From sequence record OR539220.1: a DNA stretch of 64,000 nucleotides; one strand, written 5' to 3'. Shown piece after piece: positions 1,177 to 58,205 of this stretch. This stretch comes from Escherichia phage vB-Eco-KMB40. A model generated the notes under the pieces. It did no database searches and was not told the DNA's origin. It was given only the letters and a program-made list of their open reading frames with translations. Made by a program: the position numbers and the translations under genes. Every line of letters starts with the position of its first letter. Position 1 is the first letter of the stretch.

Positions 1177-2192
1177 TGTGTTGCCTCTACATATAGCTGA
1201 TTTGCATATTGAATAAGTGCTTCGCGATCAGAATCAGTGATGTCTGGAATTGCATTAATGTATTCTTCCATCAACGTCTGAAGAGATTGAACTTCAACTT
1301 CTTCACTGTCATCTGACTCGACAGAGTTATCAATCTTTGACACAACTCGTAATGAATGCACAACTTTCTCTAGTTCAGATTCGAACTTCGTCAGATTTTT
1401 GTCTACTTCAGTTACTATAACACGTACTGATAGATTTGTAAAATCTTTATAGTCAATTTTTCCTTTAAATGGATAATGAATTCTACGATGCCAGGTAGTG
1501 TTGTTTGGAATAAATTCCATTCGTTCTGTTTCTGTATCAAACATCCAGAACCCACGAGGGTCATTCTCGTCACCGGCAGTTAGTGTCCATGGTGTCCCAA
1601 TATATCTGACGTTAGCAGCCTCAGAGATAGTATGGAAGTGACCAGACCACACCTCTTTATAAGTCTTAAGGAAATCAGGTTCAAGACCGTGAGATTTCAT
1701 TCCTTTATAAAAATAAAATCCATTCAGTTCCCAGTGACCAACACAAAAAGAAGCAGATGAAGTTTTGATGTGCTCAAGAATTTCACCAGTATTTTCTTCA
1801 CACATCCAAGGAATTAAATCAATTAAACATCCGTCAAAATCTACTGTAGTAGGCTTATCATATACTTTAACATTAGGATATTTAGCCAAAAGCTCAGTAG
1901 AGGCATTTGGAGTTAAAGTATTTTTAAAGTGCATATCATGGTTTCCTACAACAGTATGTAGGGTAATACCAGCATCATCAAGCATTTGAACTATTTCACG
2001 AGCGAACTCCATAGTTTTATGCGTGATTGCTTTTCGCACATCAAAAATATCGCCGTATTGAATCCATGTAGTAATTCCATTTTTCTTAGAATATTCTATT
2101 GCTTGTTTAATTCCATCCAACTGAATGGATTGAACCCACTCATCATCGGCTTTAACGCCTAAATGCCAATCACCTAAATTTAAAATTTTCAT
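1173..2192 (-). CDS. 47: recombination exonuclease subunit gp47 (Mre11/SbcD-like phosphoesterase)
   Basis: 339 aa; calcineurin-like phosphoesterase motifs (GDWHLG, GDIFD, GNHD, GHWE); length and N-terminus as in T4 gp47. Confidence 0.9.
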   Translation of the reverse strand: MKILNLGDWHLGVKADDEWVQSIQLDGIKQAIEYSKKNGITTWIQYGDIFDVRKAITHKTMEFAREIVQMLDDAGITLHTVVGNHDMHFKNTLTPNASTELLAKYPNVKVYDKPTTVDFDGCLIDLIPWMCEENTGEILEHIKTSSASFCVGHWELNGFYFYKGMKSHGLEPDFLKTYKEVWSGHFHTISEAANVRYIGTPWTLTAGDENDPRGFWMFDTETERMEFIPNNTTWHRRIHYPFKGKIDYKDFTNLSVRVIVTEVDKNLTKFESELEKVVHSLRVVSKIDNSVESDDSEEVEVQSLQTLMEEYINAIPDITDSDREALIQYANQLYVEATQ

Positions 2193-21923: not shown

Positions 21924-22055
21924 TACATACTCCTTTGAACCATATCAATAATGTTATTCACCAGATTATAAGTAAACATTGGGTAATTATATTGAATCAT
22001 CACATACACAACAAACAAAACTTTCATTCTCTTCTCCTTGGCAGTTGACAAGATT

Positions 22056-22085
22056 ACTATACCATAACCTTGCCAACTTGTAAAC
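22056..22085 (-). promoter_or_regulatory. T4-type early promoter (-35 GTTTACA, -10 TATAGT)
   Basis: Minus strand GGTTTACA-N17-TATAGT. Confidence 0.5.
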
Positions 22086-29230: not shown

Positions 29231-29704
29231 TTATTTGAACGATTTAACGTACTGAATAGAACCTTTACTATTTACAAAGGCAATTTTACCATTTTTATTA
29301 TACATGGTAGCAGTACGTTGATAACCATAAGTTTGTTTACCAGATTGATAACCAACTAATGCGAAATTATCTTCGCCCATTTTATTCTGTTTAGCGCGAA
29401 TGCGTTCATGACCATGTGCCATAAGAACCTTAGCATCACCGGTTGCAATGGATCGACGAGTTTTTTCATCTTCAACTGTATTAACAAAGTCGTCAAATGA
29501 ATCAAATTTAGCATGTGATTTATTATACAGTTTTCCATCTACTGCATAATTATATCCCTGTACATCCATCTCAACTTCTGTACCATCATCCAATACAGCA
29601 GTGATTTTTTGACCTTTTTTAAATTTCAAAAGATCAGTAAAAGATTCAGCAATAATTTGAGAATTAATAGCTGCTTCAGTGATAAATTCTTGATATGTTT
29701 TCAT
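29231..29704 (-). CDS. internal-protein-like head protein with capsid-targeting N-terminus (157 aa)
   Basis: N-terminus MKTYQEFITE matches T4 IP capsid-targeting consensus MKTYQEFIAE; basic mature part. Confidence 0.6.
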   Translation of the reverse strand: MKTYQEFITEAAINSQIIAESFTDLLKFKKGQKITAVLDDGTEVEMDVQGYNYAVDGKLYNKSHAKFDSFDDFVNTVEDEKTRRSIATGDAKVLMAHGHERIRAKQNKMGEDNFALVGYQSGKQTYGYQRTATMYNKNGKIAFVNSKGSIQYVKSFK

Positions 29705-34167: not shown

Positions 34168-34208
34168 ATTATAGGCTCATAATATCTCAATCATGAGCCT
34201 ATGTAAAC

Positions 34209-35942: not shown

Positions 35943-36018
35943 TGGTCGAGGCAGTAGGGATCGAACCTACGACCCAGGACTTAGAAGGTCCTTGCTCTTC
36001 CTTCTGAGCTATGCCCCG
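35943..36018 (-). tRNA. tRNA-Arg (anticodon UCU)
   Basis: Manual fold: 7-bp acceptor, D arm GCTC/GAGC, anticodon loop CTTCTAA, T loop TTCGATC, CCA encoded. Confidence 0.85.
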
Positions 36019-36022
36019 TAAT

Positions 36023-36098
36023 TGGGGTGACCGATGGGAGTCGAACCCATGACTACGAGAATCACAATCTCGAGTTCTACCAACTGAACTACGGCCAC
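36023..36098 (-). tRNA. tRNA-His (anticodon GUG)
   Basis: Manual fold: canonical arms, anticodon loop TTGTGAT, discriminator C, CCA encoded. Confidence 0.8.
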
Positions 36099-36212
36099 AT
36101 TAATACCTACTCCAACAATCAAGATGTCTTCACACGAAATTAAGAGAAGAGTGATCAGTTCAACCCCTATAATCGCGTCAAGTAGATATTAATGTGACAG
36201 TTGTCACAAATT

Positions 36213-36287
36213 TGGCGGACGTGATAGGATTCGAACCTATAACCAATCGCTTAACAGGCGATCGCTCTGCCATTGAGCTACACATCC
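36213..36287 (-). tRNA. tRNA-Asn (anticodon GUU)
   Basis: Manual fold: D arm GCTC/GAGC, anticodon loop CTGTTAA, T loop TTCGAAT, CCA encoded. Confidence 0.8.
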
Positions 36288-36291
36288 AAAT

Positions 36292-36378
36292 TGGTGGGGA
36301 GTGATGGAGTCGAACCACCCGAGTCGCAATGACAATGAATTTACAGTCCACACCGCTACCTCTACGGGATAACTCCCC
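36292..36378 (-). tRNA. probable tRNA-Tyr (anticodon GUA), long variable arm
   Basis: Canonical acceptor, anticodon arm (loop CTGTAAA) and T arm; 15-nt variable arm; D arm non-canonical (4 nt between acceptor and D stem). Confidence 0.6.
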
Positions 36379-36390
36379 TAATTCATAATT

Positions 36391-36465
36391 TGGTGGCCCT
36401 GGGTGGAATTGAACCACCATCTGGCGATTATGAGTCGCTTGCTTGAACCTTCCAGCTACAGGGCC
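36391..36465 (-). tRNA. tRNA with CAU anticodon (Met, or Ile if C34 is modified as in T4 tRNA-Ile)
   Basis: Manual fold: anticodon loop CTCATAA, T stem GGTGG/CCACC, CCA encoded. Confidence 0.75.
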
Positions 36466-36466
36466 T

Positions 36467-36542
36467 TGGTGCTGATTGACGGAATCGAACCGCCGACATC
36501 CTCATTACAAGTGAGGTGCTCTACCTACTGAGCTAAATCAGC
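36467..36542 (-). tRNA. tRNA-Thr (anticodon UGU)
   Basis: Manual fold: canonical cloverleaf, anticodon loop CTTGTAA, CCA encoded. Confidence 0.85.
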
Positions 36543-36547
36543 AAAAC

Positions 36548-36637
36548 TGGCGGAGGCGATAGGATTTGAACCTATGAGTCGCCGGAGCGACTGCCGGTTT
36601 TCAAGACCGGTGCATTAAACCACTCTGCCACGCCTCC
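36548..36637 (-). tRNA. tRNA-Ser (anticodon UGA), long variable arm
   Basis: Manual fold: anticodon stem CCGGT/ACCGG, loop CTTGAAA, 18-nt variable arm, CCA encoded. Confidence 0.85.
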
Positions 36638-36639
36638 AG

Positions 36640-36713
36640 TCTCCGCGGCAGGATTTGAACCTACGACATTCTGCTCCCAAAGCAGACGCTCTACCAAACT
36701 GAGCTACACGGAG
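36640..36713 (-). tRNA. tRNA-Pro (anticodon UGG)
   Basis: Manual fold: anticodon loop TTTGGGA, T loop TTCAAAT; CCA not encoded. Confidence 0.85.
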
Positions 36714-36723
36714 TAAATTAAAT

Positions 36724-36797
<74 letters not shown>

Positions 36798-36802
36798 AAA
36801 TT

Positions 36803-36889
36803 TGGTGCGAGAAGTGGGACTCGAACCCACAAGGAAATCATTCCGCAGCATTTTAAGTGCTGTGCCTTTACCAATTTGACCATTCTCGC
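36803..36889 (-). tRNA. tRNA-Leu (anticodon UAA), long variable arm
   Basis: Sequence GCGAGAATGGTCAAATTGGTAAAGGCACAGCACTTAAAATGCTGCGG...GTGGGTTCGAGTCCCACTTCTCGCACCA matches T4 tRNA-Leu as recalled. Confidence 0.9.
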
Positions 36890-36890
36890 G

Positions 36891-36963
36891 CTGGGAATAA
36901 AGGACTCGAACCTTTGCATCTAGCAGTCAAAGTGCTATGCCTTACCAACTTGGCTAATTCCCA
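36891..36963 (-). tRNA. tRNA-Gln (anticodon UUG)
   Basis: Manual fold: anticodon loop CTTTGAC, T arm AAAGG-TTCGAGT-CCTTT; CCA not encoded; first tRNA of the cluster. Confidence 0.85.
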
Positions 36964-37049: not shown

Positions 37050-37565
37050 TTAAAGCAAATTAAACATTTTAACGGTCGGCAAAACAATTTCTTCTTCTAT
37101 ATAAGAGTATTTAACACTCTCAACTACACGCAAAAAATCATAATCATAATACTCAGAAGCATTACCTAAAATATTAATAAGTCCTTCAAGCACTTTATTA
37201 CCATTCACAAAGAATAAGTCAAATACGCGTTCTTCGTCTTCTTCGGATTTATTACCAAGGTCAACTTCTATATCAAAGACCTTTTTAATGAATTCTGGAT
37301 AAAGTTGTTCTGAGAACAGTCCTTCAACCAAGTATTCATAAATAAAAAGCGATTGCTCGCTGAACAAGCCATTACCACAATAACGTTCAGCTTTAGTACT
37401 AGAATGTCTACTTTTAAACTTCTTTAAAAGATATTGAAATTGTAAGATTTCATGCTCTTCTACGCCAAACAGTGTTTTAGTTTTATAGTTGTCACCATCA
37501 TTTTCCCAGGTAGTGACATCAATTACGTAACCCTGTGGAATTGTAGTACCTAAACAAATATTCAT
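37050..37565 (-). CDS. hypothetical protein (171 aa)
   Basis: ORF track. Confidence 0.45.
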   Translation of the reverse strand: MNICLGTTIPQGYVIDVTTWENDGDNYKTKTLFGVEEHEILQFQYLLKKFKSRHSSTKAERYCGNGLFSEQSLFIYEYLVEGLFSEQLYPEFIKKVFDIEVDLGNKSEEDEERVFDLFFVNGNKVLEGLINILGNASEYYDYDFLRVVESVKYSYIEEEIVLPTVKMFNLL

Positions 37566-38268: not shown

Positions 38269-38454
38269 CTATTCACCTTTAGAAATTTTATCCATAACAA
38301 TAGCGATTAAACCAATTAAAAATGCTACTACAAGTGAAAACACATTTTCTGCTGTAGTTAATAATCCGCATATAAATCCAACAAACATTGAAAAACTGAA
38401 AGCGGAAGCAGAAATTGCAATAGCAACATTTCGAATTAATTCACAACGTTTCAT
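38269..38454 (-). CDS. small membrane protein (61 aa)
   Basis: Two hydrophobic helices; own early promoter. Confidence 0.45.
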   Translation of the reverse strand: MKRCELIRNVAIAISASAFSFSMFVGFICGLLTTAENVFSLVVAFLIGLIAIVMDKISKGE

Positions 38455-38482
38455 TTTATTCTCCTCAGTAGTTGATAGGGTA

Positions 38483-38512
38483 ATAGTATCACTACCCCGT
38501 CTAAAAGTAAAC
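38483..38512 (-). promoter_or_regulatory. T4-type early promoter (-35 GTTTACT, -10 TACTAT)
   Basis: Repeat element cctcagtagttgatagggtaatagtatcac shared with promoter at 38776. Confidence 0.6.
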
Positions 38513-38519
38513 TTATTTT

Positions 38520-38747
38520 TTACGAAAAAATTGATTTATTTTCTGCTGCCCATTTTTCAATAACTGCAGCAGGACCAGTGACAACAATTTTATCACCGTA
38601 ATCTTCTGCGGCGAGCTGACCATACATATTCAATGAACGACCGAGAACTTCCCAAGGCATTTCACCCATTTTATCTTTCTCGCCAGTGTAAATAAACTCA
38701 ACTTTTACATCAGCAGTTTCAGCAATAAATTCTTGATAAGTTTTCAT
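38520..38747 (-). CDS. small internal-protein-like head protein with capsid-targeting N-terminus (75 aa)
   Basis: N-terminus MKTYQEFIAE identical to the T4 IP capsid-targeting consensus; own promoter. Confidence 0.55.
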   Translation of the reverse strand: MKTYQEFIAETADVKVEFIYTGEKDKMGEMPWEVLGRSLNMYGQLAAEDYGDKIVVTGPAAVIEKWAAENKSIFS

Positions 38748-38775
38748 TTTATTCTCCTCAGTAGTTGATAGGGTA

Positions 38776-38805
38776 ATAGTATCACAACTAAAACCCTATG
38801 TAAAC
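38776..38805 (-). promoter_or_regulatory. T4-type early promoter with 7-bp inverted repeat (ATAGGGT/ACCCTAT) spanning the -10 and spacer
   Basis: Minus strand TTTTTCACAAAGTTGTTTACA-N17-TACTAT. Confidence 0.6.
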
Positions 38806-38823
38806 AACTTTGTGAAAAATTTA

Positions 38824-39108
38824 TTACAAAAGATTTTTAGCAATAATTTTAAGCTGAGCTACTGAAATATGCTTGGCTTTAAACAAAGCAGTTTCTTCAG
38901 CAGGGGAGATAACGATTGTAGCACCATCTTTCTTAGCGGACCATCCATCACCCAGGTAAACAGTACCTTTGACTTCTTCGCCATCAACCAGGCTAATCAT
39001 CGGTTTACCTTCACGTCCTTTGTTTGCTTTAATAACTTCAGAAGTAAGGGTCGCTTCAGTCAAAGTAGAAGCGTTAGTGGTTGAAGTGAATTCTTGATAA
39101 GTTTTCAT
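38824..39108 (-). CDS. ipI: internal protein I-like head protein (94 aa)
   Basis: N-terminus MKTYQEF; 94 aa versus 95 aa T4 IPI; immediately 3' of 57B as in T4; mature part divergent. Confidence 0.6.
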   Translation of the reverse strand: MKTYQEFTSTTNASTLTEATLTSEVIKANKGREGKPMISLVDGEEVKGTVYLGDGWSAKKDGATIVISPAEETALFKAKHISVAQLKIIAKNLL

Positions 39109-39138
39109 TTTATTTTCCTAATTAATTTTGATGAGGTA

Positions 39139-39169
39139 ATAGTATCACTACCTCATCAGCATGTAAACA
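39139..39169 (-). promoter_or_regulatory. T4-type early promoter with 9-bp perfect inverted repeat (GATGAGGTA/TACCTCATC) flanking the -10
   Basis: Minus strand AAAGTTGTTTACA-spacer-TACTAT; palindrome arms overlap spacer and start region. Confidence 0.55.
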
Positions 39170-39180
39170 ACTTTGTGAAA

Positions 39181-39865
<685 letters not shown>

Positions 39866-39866
<1 letters not shown>

Positions 39867-40579
39867 TATAGTACCTTTAGTGTATTTTTAATTTTAGAAA
39901 AAAGTTCTTCAAGAGAACCATCGTTTGTAATTACTAAATCGCCATCACGAATTGGCAATCCAGCTTCTGTAATATGTGTATCATTGGATTTTTGACCAGG
40001 ACGAACTACATGAATTACTGTAGCACCCATCGCCCTAGCCGCATCCATTTCATGATCTTGACGGGTATCAGGAACGATATAATAATCATAACCTGAGTTA
40101 AATTTATCAAGATAATCTAAAGCAAATAATTTTACCCAATACATGCGGTCGAAGTTATTAACAATCAAATCCGTACCTAGGGCTTGCATCAGACGACGGA
40201 CTGACCATTGATCTTCAATATTATTTATAACGTCAGCAATCTTGTTAAATGCTACGAAATTAACTGCGTCATCAAAAACAAACACGCCTTTAATTGGGCT
40301 TTTACTATTAAGATAGCAAAATGCTTGTTCCATAATCGTAATTACTTCTAATTTAGTCAGATTTAAATTAGTCTCACGATCATAGTCAATTCCTTCAAAC
40401 TCTTTACGAGTTAAGCAAGGATAGTCAGTGTTTGCTGCAAATACACCCCATGCATAAGCCAATGCATCCTTAATAGGACCAGCAAGTTGGTATTTAACCG
40501 CAGAATAATTGCTCATGATAAAATCAGCAGTAGTATCTTTTCCACTACGCTTTACACCGCTTAAAAAGATTAGTTTCAT
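39866..40579 (-). CDS. 1: deoxynucleoside monophosphate kinase gp1
   Basis: 237 aa from ATG at 40579 (MKLIFLSGVKRSGKDTT, P-loop GVKRSGKD); matches T4 gp1 N-terminus as recalled. Confidence 0.9.
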
Positions 40580-56747: not shown

Positions 56748-58205
56748 ATGATTGAATTAAAAGATTTACCTTTTGTTGATAGCGTTCCTGACGAAGGTCA
56801 GGAGCGTATTTCATGGATTAAAAATGGTGAAGAAATACTAGGAGCTAGTACTAAGTATGGAAACGATGGATCAATGAATAGACCAACTGTGTCCGTATTT
56901 AAAAATGTTGAGGTTCTTGATGAAAATATAGGAATTCTTAAAACTGCCGTTGAAACATCACAGGAAGATATTAAAACAATTCAAGGCATTTTGGATGTAT
57001 CTGGAGATATCGAAGCACTATCACAGATTAGCGTTAATAAAAATGACATATCAAATTTAAAGACGCTTACGAATGAACACACTGATATATTAAATGGTAC
57101 AAATGCCACTGTTGACCGCATTCTTTCTGATATAGGTCCATTTAATGAACACGCAAATTCAGTTTATAGAACAGTTCGAAATGATTTGTTATGGATTAAA
57201 AGAGAATTAGGGCAATATGCTGGACAAGATATTAATGGTCTTCCTGTTGTAGGAAATAGCAGCACGGGTATGAAGCATCGTATCATTAATAATACAGATG
57301 CTATAACTTCCCAAGGAATACGTCTAAGTGATTTGGAAGAAAAATTTATTGAATCTGATGTAGGTTCACTGACAATTGAAGTTGGAAATCTTAGACAAGA
57401 ACTTGGACAAAGACCATCTTCATTTAGTGAAAGCATATATTCACGTATGCATAATTTAGATCAATCGCAGATTAATCTTAGTTCCGAAATTAAATCTATC
57501 AAAACTTCTATTGGATATCCAGGAAATACTTCAATAATCACAGATGTCAATGTCAATAGTCAAGAAATTTCAGCTTTAAATGATGAACTAAATAAAAGTG
57601 GCGGCGTTAAACAGCGATTAACTGTTATTGAAACATCGATTGGTTCAGATGATATTCCTTCTAGTATTAAAGGTCAAATTAAAGATAATACCACTTCTAT
57701 TGAATCTTTAAATGGAATTGTAGGTGAAAACACCTCGTCCGGTTTAAGAGCTAACGTTTCATGGCTAAATCAGATAGTTGGAACTGATTCTAGCGGAGGT
57801 CAACCTTCTCCTCCGGGGTCTCTTTTAAATAGAGTTTCAACTGTTGAAACCTCTGTTAATAGACTTAACAATGATGTTCAAAACTTACAGGTTGAAATTG
57901 GTAATAACAATTCCGGAATTAAAGGGCAAGTTGTAGCACTAAATAAATTAGTAAATGGAACAAATCCGAATGGTTCAACTGTCGAAGAACGCGGATTGAC
58001 TAATTCAATAAAAGCTAATGAGACTAACATTTCTTCAATTAATCAAGAGATTCGTAGTATTAAAGGTAATGTGTCCTCATTACAGAGGGATGTCCAGACT
58101 TTACAAGAAGCTGGTTATATTCCTGAAGCTCCAAAAGATGGTCAAGCTTACGTTCGTAAAGACGGCGAATGGGTATTGCTTTCTACCTTTTTATCACCAG
58201 CATAA
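56748..58205 (+). CDS. wac: fibritin (whisker antigen control) with C-terminal foldon
   Basis: 485 aa; coiled-coil repeats; C-terminal foldon [27 protein letters not shown]. Confidence 0.95.

Follow-up and report, generated by a model that had tools for sequence, protein, structure and literature searches.

Two internal-protein genes and their dyad-bearing early promoter modules between the 57B and trna.4 homologues of Escherichia phage vB-Eco-KMB40

Introduction

In the genome of Escherichia phage vB-Eco-KMB40 (OR539220.1), two small genes lie in tandem beside a homologue of T4 gene 57B, and the early promoter in front of each carries an inverted repeat around its -10 hexamer. This raises the question of what the two genes encode and at which level, DNA or RNA, the inverted repeats act. 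An earlier note on this DNA, made from the letters alone, took the genes for a pair of internal-protein (IP) genes and the repeats for possible operators. Here, we analyzed the locus in its stretch of 64,000 nucleotides (the window) and compared it with T4 and other T4-type phages. The IP loci of T-even phages are reportedly polymorphic: in 1994, Repoila, Tetart, Bouet and Krisch are said to have described variable small ORFs with a shared MKT(Y/F)(Q/K)EF leader, ipI and ip6 being among the named members. Each ORF is said to have on its 5' side a conserved segment of ~70 bp, which holds a T4 early promoter and a ribosome-binding site and was reportedly proposed as a mediator of shuffling. The locus studied here likewise adjoins 57B and differs in nothing essential; it represents one particular combination, ipI + ip6.

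Results

Layout of the locus and identity of the two genes

The features of the locus are collected in Table 1. It is very probable, from gene identities and the arrangement of the modules taken jointly, that this is the ipI-side "hyperplastic" IP locus of a Tequatrovirus, which runs from 57B to trna.4 and holds two cassettes, ipI and ip6. IP loci are recognized by their position between 57B and trna.4 or between denV and e, and both genes are located between the homologues of 57B and trna.4, the latter of which has matches in 20 IMG/VR T4-like contigs. Both ORFs begin with MKTYQEF, and the earlier reading of a tandem pair of predicted IP genes at the ipI position, each with its own putative early promoter, is borne out.

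Table 1. Features of the internal-protein locus and of its promoter modules (positions are those of the window).
Feature	Position	Strand	Evidence or remarks
57B homologue, 151 aa	39181..39636	-	Pfam Acb1 (anti-CBASS) PF23474, 1.1e-59; phrog_755; position as T4 57B; upstream neighbour, left border of the IP locus
Promoter module 1 (P_ipI)	39109..39180	-	
Module 1, -35 TTTACA	39167-39162	-	
Module 1, left arm TGATGAGGTA	39158-39149	-	
Module 1, loop GTGATACTAT	39148-39139	-	holds TG and the -10 hexamer
Module 1, -10 TACTAT	39144-39139	-	
Module 1, right arm TACCTCATCA	39138-39129	-	
Module 1, Shine-Dalgarno AGGA	39119-39116	-	
ipI, internal protein I precursor, 94 aa	38824..39108	-	PDB 2JUB, 7.5e-43; Pfam IPI_T4, 1.3e-51
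Promoter module 2 (P_ip6)	38748..38823	-	
Module 2, -35 TTTACA	38804-38799	-	
Module 2, left arm ATAGGGT	38799-38793	-	
Module 2, -10 TACTAT	38781-38776	-	within the 18-nt loop
Module 2, right arm ACCCTAT	38774-38768	-	
Module 2, Shine-Dalgarno GAGGAG	38759-38754	-	
ip6, IpVI-family internal protein, 75 aa	38520..38747	-	phrog_8111 "internal virion protein", 1.3e-42
Promoter module 3 (P_trna.4), hybrid	38455..38519	-	
Module 3, -35 TTTACT	38511-38506	-	own 5' half
Module 3, left arm GACGGGGTA	38501-38493	-	own 5' half
Module 3, -10	38488-38483	-	3' half as in module 2
Module 3, right arm TACCCTATC	38482-38474	-	3' half as in module 2
trna.4 homologue, 61-aa predicted membrane protein	38269..38454	-	phrog_1692, 6e-35; position as T4 trna.4; right border of the IP locus

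The 94-aa product is a precursor: its first 18 aa (MKTYQEFTSTTNASTLTE) form the propeptide, and the other 76 aa are mature IPI*. Residues 19-94 are identical to T4 IPI* (PDB 2JUB residues 1-76) at 73 of 76 positions (96%), and the Pfam model PF11634 (IPI_T4) is matched over its positions 1-76 of 76 with 173 bits against a cut-off of 25. The earlier note had ascribed a divergent mature sequence to this protein and named identity with T4 IPI as one half of what would speak against its reading; the alignment it proposed yields essentially the T4 protein, and only the 18-aa propeptide departs from the canonical capsid-targeting sequence (CTS). For T4-type internal proteins, a CTS was defined as an N-terminal MKT(Y/F)(Q/K)EF.. 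followed by an (L/I)xE cleavage site. The leader MKTYQEF...TLTE, cut before A, fits this pattern, and the first position behind the cut corresponds to residue 1 of the 2JUB chain. The propeptide is similar to the T4 ipI leader (MKTFKEFTSTTTPVSTITE), starts with MKTYQEF where T4 has MKTFKEF, and is one residue shorter. The T4 protein shares the 76-aa mature part, the precursor layout, the Glu-Ala cleavage context and the gene position, and differs from the protein here by three substitutions (I to V, A to V, and H to Q). With 96% identity, this IPI would be expected to inhibit GmrSD (CT596-type) restriction of glucosyl-hmC DNA. A new IPI variant directed against another restriction enzyme was also considered and was rejected as unsupported at that identity.

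The 75-aa product begins, as described before, with the exact CTS MKTYQEFIAE and is, by its sequence matches, the known Ip6/IpVI internal protein, which is annotated in more than 200 sequenced phages. The phrog_8111 match covers positions 1-74 of 77, identity to Ip6-type proteins is 64-88%, and homologues are annotated as ipVI in PST and GiZh and as ip6 in VR26 ("similar to T6 Ip6"). An AlphaFold model of the protein (pLDDT 79) matched VR7 Ip6 in BFVD by Foldseek (6.5e-9). Fold searches of PDB and BFVD with this model returned other Ip6 proteins alone and gave no lead on function, and a sequence search of PDB gave nothing below E = 0.5. Packaging and cleavage of Ip6 are predicted from its leader, the cut being placed after MKTYQEFIAE, before TADVKV.

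Structure of the promoter modules

Each cassette is made up of one small gene and the repeated module in front of it. Within its ~70-90 bp, a module combines a T4 early promoter (GTTTAC, 17 nt, TGnTACTAT) and the AT-rich tract upstream of it with a dyad and with a Shine-Dalgarno sequence and ATG. The arrangement TTTACA-17 nt-TACTAT with a TG extension lies upstream of ipI (39167-39139) and of ip6 (38804-38776). At both genes the -10 hexamer of this T4-type early promoter is indeed enclosed by an inverted repeat, namely GATGAGGTA/TACCTCATC at 39157-39149 and 39138-39130 in module 1, which the flanking T/A pair would lengthen to 10 bp, and ATAGGGT/ACCCTAT in module 2. These palindromes were said to straddle the transcription start; instead, their arms flank the -10 hexamer, filling the promoter spacer and the stretch from -10 to +1, and end at about +1. 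The earlier note counted two modules and overlooked a third one upstream of the trna.4 homologue. Module 3 (38492-38449) shares a run of 44 identical nucleotides with module 2 (38785-38742), and its dyad is weaker (GGGTA/TACCC, or nine positions with one G.T and one mismatch). The three copies stand in direct repeat at spacings of 293 and 361-363 nt.

All three modules place an early promoter and then a Shine-Dalgarno sequence with ATG within ~70-100 bp of intergenic DNA, as PeSLs (promoter-early stem-loops) do. In the sense RNA, module 1 folds into a stable 13-bp hairpin (-17.4 kcal/mol; z -4.6; equalled by 0 of 200 shuffles) and module 2 into a likewise stable stem-loop (-16.6 kcal/mol; z -3.1; equalled by 1 of 200). 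The hairpin of module 3 is weak (-12.1 kcal/mol; z -1.6), and a strong stem is thus not obligatory. A terminator scan of the IP region found none. Of 39 strong -10-centred hairpins, none is followed by 8 nt with five or more T; their tails are A-rich (AAATTAAT and CAACTACT at this locus), so that these hairpins are not classical intrinsic terminators. The late-promoter motif TATAAATA does not occur inside 38400-39300, and its nearest occurrence on the same strand is at 40222-40229. A scan with Rfam 15 gave no family at gathering score and one chance match (23.6 bits against a gathering score of 50).

Gain, loss and exchange of cassettes

The T4 locus corresponds to that of the window minus one 293-bp cassette, with the breakpoint within the 44-nt identical core. 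T4 is without ip6 and the 5' half of module 3, and its trna.4 promoter corresponds, nearly identically, to P_ip6. The T4 ipI promoter is identical to module 1 in -35 hexamer, dyad, -10 and 5' leader; over the whole module, one spacer base and the length of an A-run (by 1 nt) differ. The palindromes, whose absence from homologous promoters of related phages had been named as the other half of the evidence against the earlier reading, are conserved, T4 carrying the identical one at ipI.

Between 57B and trna.4, 0-4 IP genes were counted across 25 phages: PST has ipV-ipVI, L077 ip6 only, L076 a different IP, and L078 and L079 no IP, while the combination ipI + ip6 occurs in at least 20 deposited phages. 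Hybrid modules are present in L011 and at the PST trna.4 promoter, and L016 contains a 19-nt slip duplication of GATACTATTACCTCATCAA. As with PeSLs, the modules flank variable ORFs, and the breakpoints of indels and replacements between related phages coincide with them. The repeated module would provide the homology through which cassettes are inserted, deleted and exchanged. A scan of IMG/VR with the promoter core GTGATACTATTACC retrieved only 19 loci, and scans by CTS start or by trna.4 protein were more productive.

Conservation and covariation of the dyads

The palindromes are not peculiar to ipI and ip6, about one in three T4-type early promoters having a strong dyad. In 57 of 139 promoter contexts an inverted repeat was perfect over 7 bp or more, compared with 18 +/- 3.6 in shuffles; dyad centres in these contexts gather at -4.5, counted from the end of the -10 element, and the right arms stop at +6 to +10. 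When 150 promoters were compared in a fixed register, 50.1% of cells were paired (44.4 +/- 0.9 in shuffles, 0 of 500; 33-38% in slid registers) and the covariation score was 0.230 against 0.161, figures to be read with the relatedness of the phages in mind, since the shuffle statistics overstate the independence of their promoters.

Arm sequences are unlike between adjacent promoters of this genome (GATGAGGTA, ATAGGGT, GGGTA, ATAGGCTCAT, GTTGGCAAGGTTA). Across phages, the two arms change together and stay complementary, as in the series ATAGGCTCAT/ATGAGCCTAT, ATGGGCTCAT/ATGAGCCCAT and ACAGGCTCAT/ATGAGCCTGT and the further pairs AGGGCTAT/ATAGCCCT and AGGGTTAT/ATAACCCT; one base pair is G-C in L079, G.T in L078 and A-T in L089. 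Stems of 10-13 bp are kept also at single-copy promoters outside cassette arrays (34202-34171 and 22077-22044 in the window; 57989 and 20611 in T4). In T4, the promoters with a -10-centred dyad include those of ipI and trna.4 and those at 57989 and 20611.

The dyads also show a strand asymmetry. Single mismatches within strong stems comprise 9 G.T and 0 A.C, the G.T cases being not all independent, and sense-strand hairpins are 3-4 kcal/mol stabler than antisense ones. Over the fixed register as a whole, G.T and A.C are about equally frequent (11.9% vs 10.8%), and the sense bias is partly built into the promoter consensus, as TGnTAnnAT gives G.U on the sense strand. As evidence of the strand on which the dyads act, the asymmetry is suggestive only.

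Discussion

Proposed explanation

Overall, the best explanation, and a likely one, is that IP cassettes are carried on modules analogous to PeSLs, with the dyad acting in read-through RNA. The RNA-level role taken by itself is proposed tentatively, as it falls a little short of an even chance. According to established T4 biology, host sigma-70 RNA polymerase would fire each promoter directly after infection, the N-terminal capsid-targeting sequence would bring IPI and Ip6 into the prohead core, and the prohead protease would cut after Glu (LTE before A in IPI, IAE before T in Ip6). The mature proteins would then be injected with the DNA at the next infection, where IPI* would block a GmrSD type IV restriction enzyme. 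As the arms lie upstream of each promoter's own start, no transcript begun there contains the hairpin. It would form in read-through transcripts, which may come from the 57B or ipI promoters or from the late-promoter motif at 40222-40229, and there it would most likely be the 3' structure of the upstream message, either an attenuator or a barrier to 3' exonucleases. The overlap with the promoter may be explained by the tight intergenic region, in which the spacer and the stretch from -10 to +1 are the only sequence-free parts. Promoter use, read-through and a 3' end at the hairpin are what we infer from the arrangement of these elements.

Weighing of alternatives

We give next to no credence to the idea that AT-rich promoter DNA carries these palindromes by chance. 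Shuffled sequences often contain inverted repeats of 4-5 bp, but no shuffle reaches the folding energy of module 1, dyads of 7 bp or more occur three times as often as in shuffles and at a fixed position, covariation appears in the true register only, and the dyad is conserved in T4; the fold shuffles, the dyad excess and the covariation rule chance out. Alternatively, the hairpin might only promote exchange of modules, for instance by replication stalling and template switching or because T4 endonuclease VII cuts hairpin or branched DNA, and have no role in expression. Such a recombination element agrees with the slip duplication in L016 and with breakpoints, of hybrid modules as well as of cassette indels, that fall within the dyad core or beside it. 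We regard it as distinctly unlikely, because the homology of a 44-90-nt module suffices to explain the exchanges and second-order selection would hardly keep perfect 10-13-bp stems by compensatory change at single-copy promoters outside arrays. Another possibility is that in read-through RNA the upstream sequence pairs with the Shine-Dalgarno sequence, so that only RNA from the proximal promoter is translated; such discrimination between transcripts has precedents in T4, namely gene e (lysozyme), gene 49 and I-TevI. The minimum-energy fold of module 2 does pair AUUUUUC..AGUUG with CAACU..GGAGAAU, which contains the ip6 Shine-Dalgarno sequence (-21.9 vs -16.6 kcal/mol for the core), and in L090 and L093 CAAATGGAG, which covers the trna.4 Shine-Dalgarno sequence, is matched by a complementary spacer, CTCCATTTG. 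However, the extension in module 2 uses two G.U pairs and is absent from the centroid fold, the Shine-Dalgarno sequence is left open in modules 1 and 3, and the majority of right arms stop before +1, all of which makes this reading quite improbable.

The earlier note held that the palindromes act at the DNA level, possibly as an operator. In this form, a phage or host factor would bind the dyad at -10, double-stranded or extruded, and switch early promoters off. A dyad that, at dozens of promoters, has its centre on -10 and its end at the start site would be a natural repressor site, and the shut-off of T4 early promoters, which needs neither ModA nor AsiA, has no explained mechanism (Hinton 2010, PMC2988021). 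Nevertheless, the inference does not follow. An operator would present the same half-site at the promoters that it regulates, whereas in this genome each promoter has arms of its own, and from phage to phage the arms co-vary, so that one sequence-specific protein cannot read them all. Moreover, a strong dyad is found at only about a third of early-type promoters whereas shut-off is general, and the central spacers of 8-18 nt would, from established DNA physics, disfavour cruciform extrusion. The mismatches in the stems are G.T on the sense strand and never A.C, which weakens one hairpin of a cruciform and not the sense-strand one. We therefore consider control at the DNA level very improbable. 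The compensatory change of the arms argues against a sequence-specific operator and for a nucleic-acid structure, most likely one formed in read-through RNA.

Relation to known systems

The two-gene IP arrangement has been described in the literature since 1994 and 2010 and is real but ordinary. By analogy, the module is the T-even counterpart of the PeSL. PeSLs and the modules here are alike in composition (AT-rich tract, early promoter, stem-loop, Shine-Dalgarno sequence and ATG); both flank variable ORFs, are tied to indels and replacements, and have G-T pairs in their stems (Arbiol 2010, PMC2839356; Comeau 2014, PMC4122927). PeSL stems lie mostly between -35 and -10 or over -10, and PeSL-like elements at T-even IP loci, seen by Repoila 1994, have been called analogues of PeSLs, not homologues (Arbiol 2010, PMC2839356). 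The PeSLs of RB49 and phi1 have near-perfect sigma-70 boxes and G/C-rich stems, whereas the modules here have the T4 early consensus, AT-richer stems and no U-tract. One RB49 PeSL terminated transcription in a reporter, an activity that may not be transferable to the present dyads. Stems in PST and T4 have been placed just upstream of the promoter (Comeau 2014, PMC4122927), whereas those here embrace the -10 hexamer. In bacterial promoter-coupled terminators, one stretch of DNA serves both as end signal of the upstream unit and as promoter of the tandem gene behind it, as would be the case here, and such elements are enriched between tandem, functionally related genes and save intergenic space (Fletcher et al. 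2026, bioRxiv 10.64898/2026.08.19.745784). Their stem lies over -35, with a T-tract before -10 and a 3' end ~10 bp ahead of the start, in contrast to the dyads here, whose stem embraces -10 and which have no T-tract.

Implications

What the locus adds to these descriptions is quantitative: at many T4-type early promoters, compensatory evolution has kept a hairpin that overlaps -10, yet the U-tract expected of a terminator, its usual label, is missing. A reading that we hold to be unlikely takes the -10-centred dyads, present at about one in three T4-type early promoters, for a cis-element in its own right, selected and not just left over from shuffling homology, which is kept by compensatory change, always ends at the start site and serves a regulatory step. 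If they were, candidate roles would be the shut-off of early promoters, or protection or masking of read-through RNA, for example by hiding the C-rich stretch from -10 to +1 from Rho or exonucleases. Internal proteins are injected anti-defence factors, and the content of the cassettes bears on phage host range. Three of them, Ip1, Ip2 and Ip3, disable GmrSD restriction enzymes, each one a different enzyme (PMC12373910), and the set of cassettes that a phage carries thus bears on the hosts open to it. Ip6 probably blocks another host defence and is an obvious candidate inhibitor for testing.

Organization of the internal protein locus

The window derives from a T4-like Tequatrovirus, and 807 phage records match the 1.5-kb region. 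All genes of the internal protein (IP) locus lie on the minus strand and follow one another, in the direction of transcription, as gene 1, 57A, 57B, the 94-aa ORF, the 75-aa ORF, the 61-aa ORF, homologues of trna.3 and trna.2, and the tRNA cluster. At least 20 deposited phages have this tandem of ipI and ip6, with both products annotated as internal virion proteins. Both proteins begin with MKTYQEF, and a third gene with this start is located in a second IP locus downstream of denV. It is the single IP gene there (157 aa, MKTYQEFITE..; Pfam DUF7412, phrog_3155), begins 10 nt past denV with no early promoter of its own, and stands at the position occupied by ipII and ipIII in T4.

The 57B homologue, which adjoins ipI, gave a full-length match to Pfam Acb1 (1.1e-59), an anti-CBASS cyclic-nucleotide phosphodiesterase; thus, 57B/Acb1, ipI and ip6 are three consecutive known or likely counter-defence genes. 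The tRNA cluster holds eleven genes versus eight in T4, and the 171-aa ORF between it and the trna.2 homologue has no counterpart at this position in T4. Late transcripts from the late-promoter motif in gene 1 would span 57A, 57B, ipI and ip6 and carry the hairpins described below.

Features of the IP locus and related elements (dyad, inverted repeat around the -10 region; energies, sense-strand RNA folds)
Feature	Coordinates	Strand	Details
Late-promoter motif	40222-40229	-	TATAAATA; within gene 1, upstream of 57A
57B	39181-39636	-	Acb1 homologue
ipI (94-aa ORF)	38824-39108	-	
First 20 nt of ipI	39089-39108	-	ATGAAAACTTATCAAGAATT
ip6 (75-aa ORF)	38520-38747	-	
First 20 nt of ip6	38728-38747	-	ATGAAAACTTATCAAGAATT
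T-run near ip6 end	38525-38530	-	six T
trna.4 homologue (61-aa ORF)	38269-38454	-	
171-aa ORF	37050-37565	-	phrog_2290 (unknown function)
tRNA genes	35943-36963	-	Arg, His, Asn, Tyr, Met, Thr, Ser, Pro, Gly, Leu, Gln
Third MKTYQEF gene	29231-29704	-	second IP locus
Module 1 dyad (ipI)			TGATGAGGTA/TACCTCATCA; 10 bp, 10-nt loop; -17.4 kcal/mol (z -4.6)
Module 2 dyad (ip6)			ATAGGGT/ACCCTAT; 7 bp, 18-nt loop; -16.6 kcal/mol (z -3.1)
Module 3 dyad (trna.4 homologue)			GACGGGGTA/TACCCTATC; five perfect pairs, G.T, mismatch, two outer pairs; -12.1 kcal/mol (z -1.6)
Early-type promoter outside the IP locus	34171-34202	-	perfect 10-bp dyad around -10, ATAGGCTCAT..12 nt..ATGAGCCTAT; -18.2 kcal/mol (z -5.1)
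Early-type promoter	22044-22077	-	13-bp stem GTTGGCAAGGTTA..TGGTATAG..TAATCTTGTCAAC, two sense-strand G.T pairs

Proteins encoded by ipI and ip6

The solved T4 IPI* (PDB 2JUB, 76 residues) aligns end to end with residues 19-94 of the 94-aa protein (E-value 7.5e-43) with only three substitutions, and this protein scored 173 bits against Pfam IPI_T4 (cut-off 25). The precursor consists of MKTFKEFTSTTTPVSTITE followed by ATLTSEV.. in T4 and of MKTYQEFTSTTNASTLTE followed by ATLTSEV.. in the window. Therefore, mature IPI is conserved and the difference is confined to the propeptide, the opposite of the divergent mature sequence claimed in the earlier note. The first 20 nt of ipI and ip6 are identical, and ipI of T4 and teqdroes starts with ATGAAAACATTTAAAGAATT instead; gene conversion between the leaders of the neighbouring cassettes may have produced the shared start.

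The 75-aa protein gave a match to phrog_8111 ('internal virion protein'; 1.3e-42), and an identical protein is included in the vB-Eco-KMB40 deposit. The ip6 DNA is present in 310 phage records, its homologues being annotated as ipVI in PST and GiZh and as ip6 in VR26 ('similar to T6 Ip6'). The AlphaFold model (pLDDT 79) contains a small beta-alpha-beta-beta-alpha domain, for which structure comparison returned no informative neighbour besides Ip6 itself. Ip1, Ip2 and Ip3 each block one GmrSD enzyme, all different (PMC12373910), and by analogy an anti-restriction role would be a natural guess for Ip6. Near the end of ip6, a run of six T, versus five in relatives, shifts the frame and yields a protein of 75 aa ending in ..SIFS rather than one of 77 aa ending in ..SIFRKK. 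The opposite shift is present in two variants from the database, P0003 and P0004 (98 aa), whose reading frames extend into the promoter module that follows.

Promoter modules and comparison with T4

A consensus scan detected TTTACA-17 nt-TACTAT, preceded by TG, upstream of both ipI and ip6, and a search for the pattern GTTTAC-N15-TGATACTAT returned three perfect matches in the locus, before ipI, ip6 and the trna.4 homologue. The tandem of IP genes with promoter and palindrome, as first noticed, is real and non-random, but the modules number three, not two, the one before the trna.4 homologue having been overlooked. A repeat finder grouped the modules into direct-repeat families of three copies each, spaced 293 and 361-363 nt apart. 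In all three dyads the -10 hexamer sits in the loop, and the right arm stops approximately at the expected start site, 6-8 nt past the hexamer.

The dyad and core promoter elements of ipI are the same in T4, so the palindrome is present in the homologous promoter; the whole of module 1 differs from T4 in one spacer base and the length of one leader A-run. The ip6 promoter of the window is the promoter before trna.4 in T4, and modules 2 and 3 share a 44-nt identical core, GTGATACTATTACCCTATCAACTACTGAGGAGAATAAAATGAAA. Hence, T4 corresponds to the window with one 293-bp unit removed, namely ip6 together with the 5' half of module 3; exchange between the two repeats is expected to yield this product. 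Among 25 phages, the number of IP-type genes in the 57B-trna.4 interval ranges from zero to four; their combinations differ, and most of the genes have a promoter and dyad of their own. Hybrid modules, whose left and right halves belong to different types, were observed in one related locus (L011) and in the PST trna.4 promoter. Within an IP promoter module of another locus (L016, ~2015-2077, minus strand), 19 nt are duplicated in tandem (GATACTATTACCTCATCAA), apparently through slippage of replication at the dyad.

Dyads in other early promoters

The dyads are not IP-specific. We surveyed all distinct early promoters of the T4 type that precede a ribosome-binding site and ATG; the sources were the window, 77 kb of T4 and approximately 95 related loci. 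Perfect inverted repeats of at least 7 bp were present in 57 of 139 promoter contexts, versus 18 +/- 3.6 after shuffling; their centres cluster 4.5 nt short of the end of the -10 hexamer, and the right arms extend to +6 to +10 relative to the hexamer. In a fixed-register test of 150 promoters, 50.1% of cells were paired, versus 44.4 +/- 0.9 in shuffled sets (0/500) and 33-38% with the partner slid, and the covariation score was 0.230, versus 0.161 shuffled and 0.10-0.14 slid, figures that overstate independence because the promoters are related. Individual compensatory series are clear: ATAGGCTCAT/ATGAGCCTAT in the window (34202-34171), ATGGGCTCAT/ATGAGCCCAT in L028 and ACAGGCTCAT/ATGAGCCTGT in L057, both double changes; AGGGCTAT/ATAGCCCT or AGGGTTAT/ATAACCCT in trna.4 promoters; and a three-step series from L079 (G-C) through L078 (G.T) to L089 (A-T). 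T4 itself has dyads at 73938 (ipI), 73571, 66497, 57989 (13 bp, perfect) and 20611 (10 bp). The perfect 13-bp palindrome at 57989 is the counterpart of the window stem with two G.T pairs, and that of L021 has one G.T.

Possible level of action

The suggestion that the palindromes act on DNA as an operator finds no support in the arms, whose sequences vary between promoters of one genome with complementarity kept. Single mismatches within strong stems are sense-strand G.T in nine cases and A.C in none, and the sense strand folds better than the antisense in 56 of 63 strong cases (by 3-4 kcal/mol at the four window promoters tested). Together, these observations favour a single-stranded structure of the sense strand over a protein operator. 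Since better folding of the sense strand follows in part from the TGnTAnnAT consensus itself, and G.T and A.C mismatches are about equally common over all promoters, the strand bias is suggestive but not decisive. A DNA-level role is attractive in that early-promoter shut-off in T4 is unexplained (PMC2988021), but it would have to depend on structure, and extrusion is unlikely with central spacers of 8-18 nt; we regard such a role as very improbable.

A role at the RNA level is tentatively preferred, at somewhat short of an even chance. The hairpin cannot form in the RNA of its own promoter because the left arm lies upstream of the start; it is contained in read-through RNA from the promoters of preceding genes or from the late-promoter motif. 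There it would form part of the upstream message's 3' end and serve as an attenuator, pause site or exonuclease barrier, possibly once the RNA has been cleaved at the Shine-Dalgarno GGAG present in modules 2 and 3. A classical terminator is unsupported, as none of 39 strong hairpins tested was followed by a U-tract. We propose that the hairpin overlaps the promoter because, in a very short intergenic region, the spacer and the -10/+1 stretch are the sole unconstrained positions. The bacterial promoter-coupled terminator (Fletcher et al. 2026, bioRxiv 10.64898/2026.08.19.745784) is a parallel, but its geometry differs. In two distant T4-like phages (L090 1446-1500 and L093 1447-1500, plus strand), the spacer of the trna.4 promoter, CTCCATTTG, could pair with CAAATGGAG, a complementary stretch that includes the Shine-Dalgarno sequence lying ~34 nt downstream. 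Such pairing, possible in read-through RNA only, resembles the known control of T4 gene e and gene 49.

Relation to known systems

Variable gene combinations at IP loci were reportedly already described by Repoila et al. in 1994. The promoter-early stem-loops (PeSLs) are the generalised form of this picture: their stems lie mostly between -35 and -10 or over -10, and the T-even IP elements are PeSL analogues on T4 early promoters (Arbiol et al. 2010, PMC2839356), a view extended to PST and T4 by Comeau et al. 2014 (PMC4122927). The finding is a known system re-described, namely a polymorphic IP locus whose ipI and ip6 cassettes have promoter modules resembling PeSLs, and its residual interest is limited to the role of the conserved -10-centred hairpins and the target of Ip6.
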